Positions 1,617-4,366 of a stretch of 64,000 nt of DNA are shown here, piece after piece. Source of the DNA: Gammaproteobacteria bacterium (lineage in GTDB: Bacteria; Pseudomonadota; Gammaproteobacteria; UBA4575); NCBI GenBank assembly GCA_965222615.1, contig CBDCUI010000009.1, forward strand, positions 160,001 through 224,000, written 5' to 3'. The notes below the pieces were generated by a model. That model was not told the origin of the DNA. It did no database searches and was given only the letters and a program-made list of their open reading frames with translations. The position numbers were made by a program, and so were the translations under genes. Positions within the stretch are counted from its first letter, which is position 1; each line of letters starts with the position of its first letter.

Positions 1617-1681
1617 GTGTCCGTTCTCCTAGCCCGTTAGTTGATATCGTTGTCTCATTTATTGGGCTAACTAAACGGCAA

Positions 1682-1736
1682 CGCTTTAGCAGTATTTTGT
1701 AAGCCGCCCTGCAAGTTGTTTGATTAAACCGGCGAC
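1682..1736 (-). ncRNA. SAM-II-like riboswitch aptamer (downstream copy)
   Basis: Minus strand GTCGCC-GGTTTAATCAAACAAC-TTGC-AGGGCGGC-TTACAAAATACT-GCTAAAGCG: P1 helix, UUU loop, UUGC and GCUAAA tail as in SAM-II. Confidence 0.7.
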
Positions 1737-1739
1737 CAT

Positions 1740-1771
1740 AAAAAAACCCATCTAAGCACTGCTTAAATGGG
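1740..1771 (-). terminator. Intrinsic terminator between the two aptamers
   Basis: Minus strand CCCATTTAAGC-AGT-GCTTAGATGGG followed by a T7 run. Confidence 0.85.
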
Positions 1772-1780
1772 CCCTATATC

Positions 1781-1835
1781 CCTCGCTTTAGCGGTACTTA
1801 TTGTGCGCCCGCAAGCTGATGCTCAAATCGGCGCC
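1781..1835 (-). ncRNA. SAM-II riboswitch aptamer (upstream copy)
   Basis: Minus strand GGCGCC-GATTTGAGCATCAGC-TTGC-GGGCGC-ACAATAAGTACC-GCTAAAGCGAGG matches the SAM-II pattern (P1, GAUUU, UUGC, GCUAAA pseudoknot tail). Confidence 0.8.
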
Positions 1836-1843
1836 TAATATGT

Positions 1844-1872
1844 AGCTTAATTATAGGTATAAGTTTTGTCAA
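1844..1872 (-). promoter_or_regulatory. Sigma70-type promoter for the riboswitch leader
   Basis: Minus strand TTGACA-17nt-TAAGCT ending ~8 nt before aptamer 1. Confidence 0.6.
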
Positions 1873-2106: not shown

Positions 2107-2880
2107 ATGCCTAATTCCTTTTTGATTCAGTTATTTACACTTATTTGCCTGATAAGTTTCATTCCTTTGAAGGCAGTTGCTAAATGTACAATAGAAGAAG
2201 TCGAATTTTTTTTAGATAAGGGCTTTTCTCAGGAACAGATAACTCGCTTATGTTCAACTGCTAGTGGCCAAAATTGCCCTCCTTGTCCGAAAGAAAAAAC
2301 CTTAACTCAGCTAGAAATAGCAGACATTTGTAAAGCATCTAATTCTGCTAGTTTAGATTGTAGTAAATGCCCTCAACAATCAGTAACAGGTACGACAAGT
2401 GAATCTTCGCAAGAAATTGATGAAACTCGACAAAACGTTGCTCTAGTGCACAAAGCCGACTCATCTCAAAGCGAACGAGAGGCAATTCAAAAGTTAAAAA
2501 TAGCGGGGGACATACTAAATTTCGATGTCGATCCCGAGAAAATAAAATATACCAAAAGAGTTTGTGTGTTTTCCGGTGATGCACAAGCAAGGGGCAGACG
2601 TCGTGAATATTGCCACGGTATTAATTACACAATCACGCGTCGCAATTTACAAGCAAGTCCTGGCAAAACGCTACCGATAATTGGTACACCCAATGCATTA
2701 ATTGTTGGCGATATATCGTTGGAATTGAATGGCAGTCTAAAAGAATATCCGTCTGAAGTTCGTAAACAATTAGAGGCATATGTTAAGGATAATCAAGGTA
2801 AAAATGAAACTAATTTTCCTGCACGTGAGGAATTTTCTGTTGCGGAGATTGTTCAAGCTTTGCAAACGCTTTCACGTTAA
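2107..2880 (+). CDS. Hypothetical secreted protein with Cys-rich N-terminus
   Basis: Signal peptide (AVA-K), CPPC and CSKC motifs, 257 aa ORF. Confidence 0.7.
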   Translation: MPNSFLIQLFTLICLISFIPLKAVAKCTIEEVEFFLDKGFSQEQITRLCSTASGQNCPPCPKEKTLTQLEIADICKASNSASLDCSKCPQQSVTGTTSESSQEIDETRQNVALVHKADSSQSEREAIQKLKIAGDILNFDVDPEKIKYTKRVCVFSGDAQARGRRREYCHGINYTITRRNLQASPGKTLPIIGTPNALIVGDISLELNGSLKEYPSEVRKQLEAYVKDNQGKNETNFPAREEFSVAEIVQALQTLSR

Positions 2881-2929
2881 AAATCGCATAGTCTGCCTTA
2901 TAACTTAGCTTTTTAACTATGGTACTTAT

Positions 2930-4366
2930 ATGGCATCAATAACAGAAAATATTTCGGGTATAAAGCAAAGTAAAATAATTTATTTTATTCCTTCGTTCTT
3001 AATTCTATTTTTTTTCAGCTTATCTTTTTTACCGCGTATCCAACAAAACGAAAATCTTATTTATACCTTTTGGTGGGTAAGTATCATACTCGTACTCTTG
3101 TATGGATTCGTATTATTTTTTCTTCTGAAAAACAAAATAATACCAAGTATACGCGTAGTACTACGACCATCGCACTATGTGCAAGCTATGGTTCAACTTG
3201 GAGTTTATATCTATTGGGGATGGTATTGGCGACCTGTTTATGAACAGGCTACATTGATCCTTGCGCAGCTAGTATTCCTTTATATATTAGAAGCACTCAT
3301 ATCATGGGTACGAGGTAGACAGTGGTATTTAGGTTTTGGCGTCTTTCCCATCATATTTAGCATCAATTTATTTCTTTGGTTTAAAGACGATACTTTTTTC
3401 TTACAATTTATAATGGTGGCCATTGGAGTACTAGGAAAGGAGTTTATTACATGGAATAAAGAAGGGCGTATTACTCATATTTTTAATCCGTCTGCCTTTG
3501 CATTATCAGTAGCTGCAATGCTGTTAATAGTAACCAATAATTCCGAGATTAGTTGGGGGCATGCGATTGCTAACACATTAGCTTATCCAGAATATATTTA
3601 CGTATGTATATTTGCTCTTAGTCTAGTCGTCCAATATTTATTTCGAGTAACTTTAGTAACACTTTCGGCAGCAGTAACCTTAGTTCTAATTGGTTTAATT
3701 TATTTTAAATTGACAGGGGTGTATTTCTTTATCACCTCCGATATTCCCATAGCCGTATTTCTCGGTTTACATTTATTGATAACAGATCCTTCCACATCGC
3801 CGCGTACGGATTTTGGTCGCGTTCTATTTGGAGCCTTGTATGGAATTAGTGTAATAATATTATTTGCTGTGCTGAATCAAACGGGGTTCCCTACCTTTTA
3901 TGACAAGTTATTGGCGGTGCCGATATTAAATCTGACTATTCAAATGCTTGACCGTGTGGCTAGAGGCATTGACTTTTCTAAATTTTGGCCAGAGGAATTA
4001 CGATTTAAGTTTACGCCACACCAACTAAATCAATTGCATATGGCAATTTGGATTATTTTCTTTTTGAGCTTATTTTCTGCAAATAAGTTTGGTAGTTCGC
4101 ATGCAGGGCGGAATTCCGGCTTTTGGGAACAGGCATGTGATAAAAACTTACGCAATGCTTGTCATAATTTATATGATCTAATGGCAAATGAATGTGCTAA
4201 AGGCCAACCAATTGCGTGTGCAAAACAGGGCTGGATGACACGCAATGCTGTTGGCACGGTGCGTGATGATAAAAAGGCCTTTGAGTTGGTTGACCATGCC
4301 TGTGACCTTGGTTTTACTGAAGCCTGTACTCGTCTTTATGAGGGTGAGTTTAACTACGAAAAATAG
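2930..4366 (+). CDS. NqrB/RnfD-like (UnbU-like) integral membrane protein with C-terminal Sel1-like repeat
   Basis: Many TM helices, HIFNPS and ITDPSTSP motifs of the RnfD/NqrB family; C-terminal ACDKN..AC, DDKKAFELVDHACDLG..AC Sel1/Hcp-type repeats. Confidence 0.7.
   Translation: MASITENISGIKQSKIIYFIPSFLILFFFSLSFLPRIQQNENLIYTFWWVSIILVLLYGFVLFFLLKNKIIPSIRVVLRPSHYVQAMVQLGVYIYWGWYWRPVYEQATLILAQLVFLYILEALISWVRGRQWYLGFGVFPIIFSINLFLWFKDDTFFLQFIMVAIGVLGKEFITWNKEGRITHIFNPSAFALSVAAMLLIVTNNSEISWGHAIANTLAYPEYIYVCIFALSLVVQYLFRVTLVTLSAAVTLVLIGLIYFKLTGVYFFITSDIPIAVFLGLHLLITDPSTSPRTDFGRVLFGALYGISVIILFAVLNQTGFPTFYDKLLAVPILNLTIQMLDRVARGIDFSKFWPEELRFKFTPHQLNQLHMAIWIIFFLSLFSANKFGSSHAGRNSGFWEQACDKNLRNACHNLYDLMANECAKGQPIACAKQGWMTRNAVGTVRDDKKAFELVDHACDLGFTEACTRLYEGEFNYEK

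Follow-up and report, generated by a model that had tools for sequence, protein, structure and literature searches.

What does the leader of a 246-amino-acid (aa) protein gene do when it carries what looks like the same riboswitch twice? The question arises on the minus strand of a 64,000-nucleotide (nt) stretch of a Gammaproteobacteria bacterium assigned to UBA4575 (GenBank assembly GCA_965222615.1, contig CBDCUI010000009.1, positions 160,001 to 224,000; here called the window), in which an earlier note, made from the letters alone, had read tandem riboswitches of the SAM-II type, a class that binds S-adenosylmethionine (SAM), split by an intrinsic terminator. From 1872 to 1614 of the window we find, in order, a candidate promoter, aptamer 1, an intrinsic terminator, aptamer 2 and a helix that buries the ribosome-binding site (RBS), followed by an ATG at 1616. 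We propose, with a probability of about 0.8, that two paralogous pseudoknot aptamers of the SAM-II type, placed in a single 5' leader, make up a two-tier SAM OFF switch. The earlier note's picture of a two-tier SAM switch gains support from the presence of both aptamers, the terminator between them, the RBS helix, and the recurrence of the cassette before methionine and SAM genes. Its guess that the host is probably a gammaproteobacterium fits as well, same-family loci likewise coming from Gammaproteobacteria.

Transcription of the leader probably starts from a sigma-70 promoter at 1872-1844, composed of a -35 box TTGACA (1872-1867), a 17-nt spacer and a -10 box TAAGCT (1849-1844); sister loci carry TTGACA-N17-TAGCAT upstream with identical spacing, and transcription would be expected to begin near 1837. 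A consensus promoter scan called no promoter at the locus. What stands of the minus-strand promoter proposed earlier is the TTGACA/TAAGCT pair with the spacing seen in the sister loci, while TATAAT at 1855-1850 lies only 11 nt from the -35 box.

Two SAM-II-type aptamers in one leader

Standard covariance models see these aptamers only faintly. The Rfam model SAM_alpha (RF00521), whose gathering score is 36, matches aptamer 1 at 23.8 bits (E 0.0018 over 301 nt, 0.037 over 6 kb) and aptamer 2 at 14.0 bits (E 0.82), so Rfam-based annotation misses the window copies, and nowhere in the 64-kb window does an Rfam family come up to its gathering score. SAM_V (RF01826) has no match at E <= 10 in the 301-nt region or the whole genome, and none of the 25 weak genome matches to the SAM-II long-loop variant (RF01726) overlaps any of the genome's seven aptamers. 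To set beside these sub-threshold results, a covariance model that we call R2 was made from 47 aptamers of 24 distant beta- and gammaproteobacterial loci, leaving out this genome and the loci of its family; its training loci came from a pattern based on this family, and the core motifs are therefore common by construction. R2 scores aptamer 1 at 66.3 bits (E 1.9e-16) and aptamer 2 at 58.1 bits (E 3.4e-14), with the next match in the 64 kb at 8.3 bits; genome-wide it finds seven sites at 49.4-66.8 bits, the next lying at 19.9. The Rfam search suggested by the earlier note was thus negative for SAM_V, for RF01726 at these sites and, at threshold, for SAM_alpha, while the independent model recognises both aptamers. 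In two of 18 other tandem loci the first aptamer passes the RF00521 threshold (43.4 and 41.4 bits) and so connects the group with SAM-II; no second aptamer is recognised in these loci.

Both aptamers lie almost exactly where the earlier note had placed them (1835-1781 and 1736-1682). Aptamer 1, which we term type 1, spans 1836-1781 and forms a SAM-II-type H-pseudoknot, in which P1 pairs GCGCC with GGCGC (1834-1830 with 1809-1805), followed by the third strand GAUUUGA (1829-1823), the descending P2 strand AGCUUGC (1817-1811) and the ascending strand GCUAAAGCG (1792-1784). Aptamer 2, of type 2, spans 1737-1679 and has a P1 of GUCGCC with GGCGGC (1736-1731 with 1708-1703), a third strand GGUUUAA (1730-1724), CUUGC at 1715-1711 and the ascending strand GCUAAAGC (1690-1683), its tail also reading GCUAAAGCG; it possesses in addition a short helix, P2a, whose 5' strand is AAAC (1721-1718) and whose 3' strand is GUUG (1682-1679). 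The two types can be aligned column for column, which makes them paralogous, and share one order of parts: a P1 of 5-6 base pairs (bp), a seven-base third strand, a turn, (A/G)CUUGC, the P1 3' strand, a linker, and GC-U-AAA-GC. In both, the linker is 11-12 nt long, A-rich and unpaired, and contains no P3 stem-loop. The H-type pseudoknot and the signature GAUUUGA ... GCUUGC ... GCUAAAG are those of SAM-II as modelled in RF00521, a fold whose crystal structure is said to have been reported by Gilbert et al. in 2008.

Conservation across homologues supports both folds. When 185,579 species representatives were searched by pattern, type 1, terminator and type 2 turned up in this order at 39 loci, all beta- or gammaproteobacterial, and with four further loci we examined 43, of which 41 are complete tandems and two (L064 and L067) run off their contigs. 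The taxa include Methylotenera, Dechloromonas, Azoarcus, Rivihabitans, Methylococcaceae, Thiohalobacter, Thiobacillaceae, Usitatibacter, Arenicellales and an Escarpia endosymbiont. In 40 distinct homologues the type 1 P1 is 99% paired and nearly invariant, one pair reading CG in 35, UG in three and UA in two. The type 2 P1 is more telling, with changes on both sides in all seven proposed pairs and a score that none of 500 shuffles reached; its outermost pair is unpaired in 33 of 40 sequences and the six inner pairs are mostly paired. P2a of type 2, a helix of 3-4 bp that joins the four bases preceding AACUUGC to the four that follow GCUAAAGC, is 83.8% paired, and its pair 20/72 alternates between GC (18), AU (17), GU (2) and CG (1), again with a score that no shuffle in 500 reached. 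Slid registers of P2a were 5-37% paired, apart from a slide of +3 that gave 85% and counts one pair only. We also considered an alternative P1 joining the P1 3' strand of aptamer 2 to bases past the tail; it works well for GUCGCC/GGCGAC and fails to follow ACCGCC/GGCGGG, as judged by eye, and we set it aside.

Both aptamers keep, in their pockets, the U that would pair with SAM's adenine (bulged), two U:A.U triples, the A that would hold the amino acid, and two G-C pairs adjoining P1, positions that were mapped by alignment to the SAM-II/SAM-V description in PMC6061858 and not to coordinates. We infer that SAM is the ligand of both. The types do differ consistently across distant taxa, type 2 having G-R-N-U-U-A-A as third strand where type 1 has G-A-U-U-U-G-A, and AAC opposite the amino-acid end where type 1 has AGC. 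These differences could mean that each aptamer has a ligand of its own, for example SAM for one and a related metabolite for the other, in which case the type 2 subtype, marked by its third strand, its AAC and its covarying P2a, would have drifted to another ligand of the methionine/SAM cycle and the tandem would be a two-input gate instead of a double SAM sensor. We consider this very improbable: the positions for adenine, sulfonium and amino acid are the same in type 2, the variable third-strand position makes one hydrogen bond only in the SAM-V structure, and in several genomes of the family a single type 2 aptamer is the sole element before metY-type genes, which fits SAM. Tandems of the two types are found from Methylotenera through to this gammaproteobacterium.

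A terminator and a ribosome-site helix

Of the two expression platforms, the first is an intrinsic terminator at 1775-1740, present as the earlier note had it (1771-1740). Its G+C-rich 12-bp stem (1772-1761 with 1757-1746) closes on a loop of AGU and runs into seven T's (1746-1740), with a folding energy of -16.4 kcal/mol. It is the sole terminator-like site within 1300-2200, where shuffled sequences give 0.6 +/- 0.9. A hairpin with a U-run stands at the same place in all 41 complete tandems, with differing stem sequences and energies from -10 to -24 kcal/mol. In most tandems the 5' arm of the terminator (for example CCCGCUUUAGC) is the reverse complement of the ascending strand and the G's that follow it (GCUAAAGCGGG); the arm/tail duplex has a mean energy of -12.7 kcal/mol against -6.0 in shuffled sequences, with z < -2 in 30 of the 41. 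Judged by its base pairing, this complementarity is the classical competition between antiterminator and terminator, under which the transcript should terminate while SAM keeps the strand in P2. In the first tier, SAM would lock the 3' strand GCUAAAGCG of aptamer 1 into the P2 triplex, leaving the CCC...AAGC arm free for terminator formation, so that the transcript would end at the T-run near 1741; without SAM, the GCUAAAGCG strand and the GGG after it would compete for the terminator's 5' arm and allow read-through.

The terminated product of this first tier, about 95 nt of aptamer 1 transcript, might itself be the functional output, a trans-acting small RNA (sRNA) to which regulation of the downstream gene is secondary. 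Termination at a SAM-II riboswitch has been predicted to yield an sRNA in Sinorhizobium, according to the abstract of PMC9373788, and two Burkholderia sRNA families of Rfam give weak matches over aptamer plus terminator, ncS01 on the minus strand (1740-1817, 12.4 bits) and Bp2_287 on the opposite, plus strand (1755-1830, 15.2 bits). These scores are far under the gathering scores of 58 and 70, respectively, nothing in this analysis points to any sRNA target, and the cassette always lies directly before a gene on the same strand, so that we give the sRNA idea hardly any credence. The two matches suggest that Bp2_287 and ncS01 were built on terminated SAM-II leader transcripts.

Returning to the two-tier switch, read-through transcripts carry a second platform in the leader of about 60 nt between aptamer 2 and the Shine-Dalgarno (SD) sequence AGGAG at 1630-1626. 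In its minimum-energy fold (-21.4 kcal/mol), an anti-SD strand CCGUUUAGUUAGCCC (1678-1664) that begins directly after P2a pairs with GGGCUAGGAGAACGG (1635-1621) and covers the SD. This sequestor helix (1678-1621, minus strand) includes the TTAGCCC/GGGCTAG pairing at the RBS that the earlier note had picked out, and is kept in related leaders, in one of which (locus L012) GCCC/GGGC has changed in compensation to GUCC/GGAC. The other pairing proposed earlier, CCGTTTAGTT with AACTAACGG, can form nine pairs with a bulge at -6.7 kcal/mol when enforced, a weak helix that four related leaders do not keep, and we set it aside as the alternative fold in favor of a better-supported hairpin. This anti-sequestor hairpin (1683-1648, minus strand) would pair CGUUG-C-CGUUUA (1683-1672) with UAAAUG-A-G-A-CAACG (1661-1648), its core being CGUUG (1683-1679) with CAACG (1652-1648) and its extension CGUUUA with UAAAUG; it takes up C1683, the P2a strand and the 5' half of the anti-SD strand. 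Nascent prefixes of the window leader 45-56 nt long have this 12-bp hairpin as their minimum-energy fold (-8.6 kcal/mol). Equivalent pairings are possible in five of five leaders of the window type, and one pair is G-C in three leaders, G.U in the window and A-U in L077. By its pairing, the window hairpin would thus act as an anti-sequestor.

A sister type of leader, found before genes for a protein of about 150 aa and metY-type genes (20 sequences), provides further comparative evidence. There, the tail GCGAUGAC pairs with a downstream GUCAxCGC (99.3% paired) in a helix that encloses the anti-SD strand and therefore excludes the sequestor topologically. Column 14 changes from C to U in three rows, and A replaces G in three rows each at its anti-sequestor partner (column 40) and its sequestor partner (column 72). 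At the level of the alignment, these comparative data do show an alternative-helix switch in the sister leader type.

For the window leader we propose that SAM binding to aptamer 2 would fix GCUAAAGC and the P2a strand GUUG, leaving the adjacent anti-SD strand to pair with the AGGAG region and block translation of the 246-aa protein, and, probably through the overlap of stop and start codons, of the rhodanese encoded after it. Without SAM, the freed CGUUG would nucleate the hairpin with CAACG, tying up the anti-SD strand and leaving the ribosome site open. The P2a 3' strand would be common to the SAM-bound pseudoknot and the anti-sequestor, and we infer that the choice between them is made during transcription. 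This gives a testable picture of how a SAM-II-type aptamer could control a ribosome site about 50 nt away, through a P2a 3' strand shared by pseudoknot and anti-sequestor.

Several results weigh against the two-tier reading. Both aptamers score under the RF00521 gathering threshold. The P2 core (CUUGC with GC-U-AA and one unpaired U) is 100% complementary in 40 distinct sequences, yet its columns were set by the search pattern and never vary, so that this invariance is uninformative; and a P2a in the same register in type 1 is 61% paired, no better than shuffles. Arm and tail of the window copy show little complementarity, reduced as it is there to GCUAAA with UUU(A)AGC and GGG with CCC (-6.3 kcal/mol, shuffled -4.6, z -0.97), and in equilibrium folds of aptamer 1 plus terminator the terminator always forms, with no stable antiterminator; tier 1 in this copy therefore rests mainly on homology. 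In tier 2, whether the tail is freed or blocked, the window SD stays 0.41 unpaired at equilibrium. Among 39 leaders with an assignable start codon, 22 keep the SD below 0.3 unpaired in either state, and a difference of more than 0.1 in the expected direction appears in six when the tail alone is blocked or in four when the whole aptamer is, with two going the opposite way. Since the sequestor forms with the tail free or blocked, thermodynamics alone shows no switch, and since the anti-sequestor reaches -10.7 kcal/mol against -21.4 for the sequestor, tier 2 would need kinetic control. Finally, the window's cargo, the 246-aa protein and the rhodanese, are not known methionine genes. Of the two tiers proposed in the earlier note, the order of parts stands, with a second aptamer followed by an RBS-sequestering helix; the translational tier itself is presumptive, and equilibrium folds keep the ribosome site paired with the tail free or not.

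These folds suit a simpler account in which only the first unit works as a riboswitch, aptamer 2 being a conserved structural remnant and the RBS helix constitutive, for example to tune translation or messenger RNA (mRNA) stability. The pairing of the ribosome site at equilibrium in either state of the tail and the 14.0 bits of aptamer 2 with RF00521 both speak for it. Aptamer 2, on the other hand, keeps all pocket positions, and its P1 and P2a covary over 40 distinct sequences from two proteobacterial classes; type 2 aptamers stand as the only element before metY-type genes in several genomes of the family; and in the sister leaders the change of one column is matched in the partners of two mutually exclusive helices. 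We therefore regard a purely structural second aptamer as improbable, and continue to favor a switch in which both aptamers would turn expression off.

Relatives, gene context and known tandem riboswitches

The seven aptamer sites in this genome make up three tandem cassettes and one single aptamer, and the three terminators share their position and differ in sequence. Besides the window copy, a cassette at C7:799232-799392 precedes a 66-aa open reading frame (ORF), metF (PF02219, E 8e-99) and a 1240-aa metH-like ORF, and one at C9:1112364-1112523 precedes a 147-aa ORF, a metY-type Cys/Met enzyme of the pyridoxal-phosphate-dependent kind (PF01053, E 7e-91) and an alpha/beta hydrolase-like ORF. 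Methionine/SAM genes thus stand behind two of the three cassettes, the window copy being the exception. The same trend holds in other genomes, where tandems often precede metK, metF, metH or metX/metW. For each of the 41 tandems we searched the 2.5 kb that follow it and kept the two longest open frames (78 in total), among which the commonest Pfam matches are the three SAM synthetase domains (6), Cys_Met_Meta_PP (5) and Abhydrolase_1 (4), followed by MTHFR, homocysteine S-methyltransferase and DUF2237 (3 each) and MetW (2). Going by these domain matches, the gene context is as expected for a SAM sensor, and for the family, as for the other two cassettes of this genome, a location before methionine genes is a further trait shared with SAM-II of RF00521.

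BLAST finds the cassette in 13 of 41 related genomes, this genome counted. A second model, R1, which includes this genome's own sequences, detects at least one aptamer in 20 of 56 genomes of the family and a tandem in nine; two genera with small genomes lack aptamers (0/13 and 0/16). In a sample of the class with one genome per family, 76 of 151 have an aptamer (74 of 149 without two unpublished genomes, G196 and G094), and two matches within about 170 nt on the same strand occur in four of the 151, namely this genome (G000), G085, G173 and G186. Roughly half of the family-level lineages sampled in the class thus have a riboswitch that standard Rfam annotation misses, and methionine regulons in these bacteria are accordingly under-annotated.

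The single aptamer of this genome lies outside the window at locus L079 (C8:832302-832357, minus strand, 60-64 bits) and has the third strand GACUUGA and the descending strand GCAUGC in place of GCUUGC. These core changes cost it one of the two U:A.U triples and may mark a copy in decay or a variant whose specificity has altered. It precedes a 154-aa member of the same family of about 150 aa, without database matches, that follows the sister leaders.

The tandem design itself is already known, and this locus is a further example of it. In the excerpted text of Sherlock et al. 2022 (RNA Biol 19:1059, PMC9481103), 44 tandem SAM-II/SAM-II 'bi-mechanism' riboswitches are described, some with the same mixed platform, along with 149 SAM-II/SAM-V tandems. 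Like the former, the window leader holds two SAM-II aptamers, the first with an intrinsic terminator. It differs from what that text describes in that aptamer 2 belongs to a conserved subtype of its own, some 50 nt separate it from the ribosome site, which would be reached through a long helix, and the cargo is a non-methionine gene; our loci may be among the 44. The logic of an aptamer with a terminator followed by a translational aptamer is also that of the marine SAM-II/SAM-V tandem, for example in the Pelagibacter bhmT leader credited to Poiata et al. 2009 (described in PMC9481103 and listed in PMC2704228); a SAM-II/terminator/SAM-V tandem of Pelagibacter was also the precedent named in the earlier note. 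Aptamer 2 is nonetheless unlike SAM-V, since it has no RF01826 match and no P3 stem-loop and has a covarying P2a of 3-4 bp; where the 2-bp P2a of SAM-V holds the SD, the window SD lies outside P2a, about 50 nt downstream. Second aptamers with SAM-V-like traits do occur in other genomes, at L050:6326-6395 and L052:1467-1534, with a G+C-rich hairpin resembling the SAM-V P3 in the linker and an SD AGGAG 3 nt past the aptamer tail.

The literature on SAM-II places these findings in a broader frame. Huang & Lilley 2018 describe most SAM-II riboswitches as transcriptional, which contradicts the earlier note's premise that the class usually acts on translation. SAM-II is commonest in Alpha-, Beta- and Gammaproteobacteria according to an excerpt of Meyer et al. 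2009 (PMC2704228), and the excerpted text of Leyn et al. 2014 (PMC4239095) reports SAM_alpha by Rfam profiles in Rhizobiales and Rhodobacterales only, together with a betaproteobacterial 'metXZ' RNA element, a pseudoknot with a non-conserved terminator before metX/metW or metZ. Compared by description, the 'metXZ' element resembles type 1 plus terminator, to which it probably corresponds; the excerpt describes it without ligand or tandem. Among the papers listed for SAM-II riboswitches in Betaproteobacteria none concerns this tandem, and among those listed for Coxiella, Legionella, Aquicella and Rickettsiella none mentions 'SAM riboswitch'. What is mildly new here is the cargo, a lineage-restricted exported helical protein together with a rhodanese.

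Regulated genes and their neighbours

The first regulated gene, at 1616-876 on the minus strand, encodes the 246-aa protein, which has a signal-peptide-like N-terminus and an all-helical body and belongs to a lineage-restricted family with 13 homologues among 5.8 billion proteins. Searches found no Pfam match, one chance-level NCBIfam match (16 bits against a cut-off of 200) and scores of at most 0.79 in a protein atlas. An AlphaFold2 model is all-helical (predicted local distance difference test, pLDDT, 80.3; predicted template-modelling score, pTM, 0.70), and a Foldseek comparison with PDB entries found just generic helical bundles, none of them at E <= 0.001. Homologues are also riboswitch-adjacent at L014, L012 and L077, in at least three other genomes, another genus included, so that the association is conserved. 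The second gene of the operon, at 879-451 on the same strand, encodes a 142-aa single-domain rhodanese, sulfurtransferase-like (PF00581, E 5.9e-15), whose start overlaps the stop of the 246-aa gene by 4 nt; its best NCBIfam match is GlpE (41 bits, under the cut-off of 102), and it hints, as a guess, at a link to sulfur supply.

Proteins without database matches follow the riboswitch elsewhere too. The family of about 150 aa (L028:1726-2169, the same as C9:1112587-1113030, with homologues at L013, L017, L068 and L079) is repeatedly the first gene past the riboswitch and in this genome precedes the metY-type gene. It has no Pfam or NCBIfam match, and its atlas look-alikes (at most 0.84) are uninformative; for the 147-aa member, Pfam, NCBIfam and the protein atlas returned nothing usable. 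The riboswitch context places both this family and the 246-aa exported helical protein, the latter along with its rhodanese, in SAM/sulfur metabolism, two families to which no function had been attached. The 66-aa ORF between the second aptamer and metF (L024:1735-1935) overlaps the metF start by 20 nt. Over its first 37 residues it is similar to the signal-peptide end found in the 246-aa family (hhalign E 2e-4, probability 47%), and it is possibly a remnant that has been retained as a leader ORF for coupling.

On the other side of the leader, the divergent neighbours at 2107-4366 of the plus strand encode a 478-aa polytopic membrane protein, with a faint resemblance to NQR2/RnfD/RnfE (E 0.0035, under the cut-off), and a Cys-rich exported protein of 257 aa that belongs to no recognised family.

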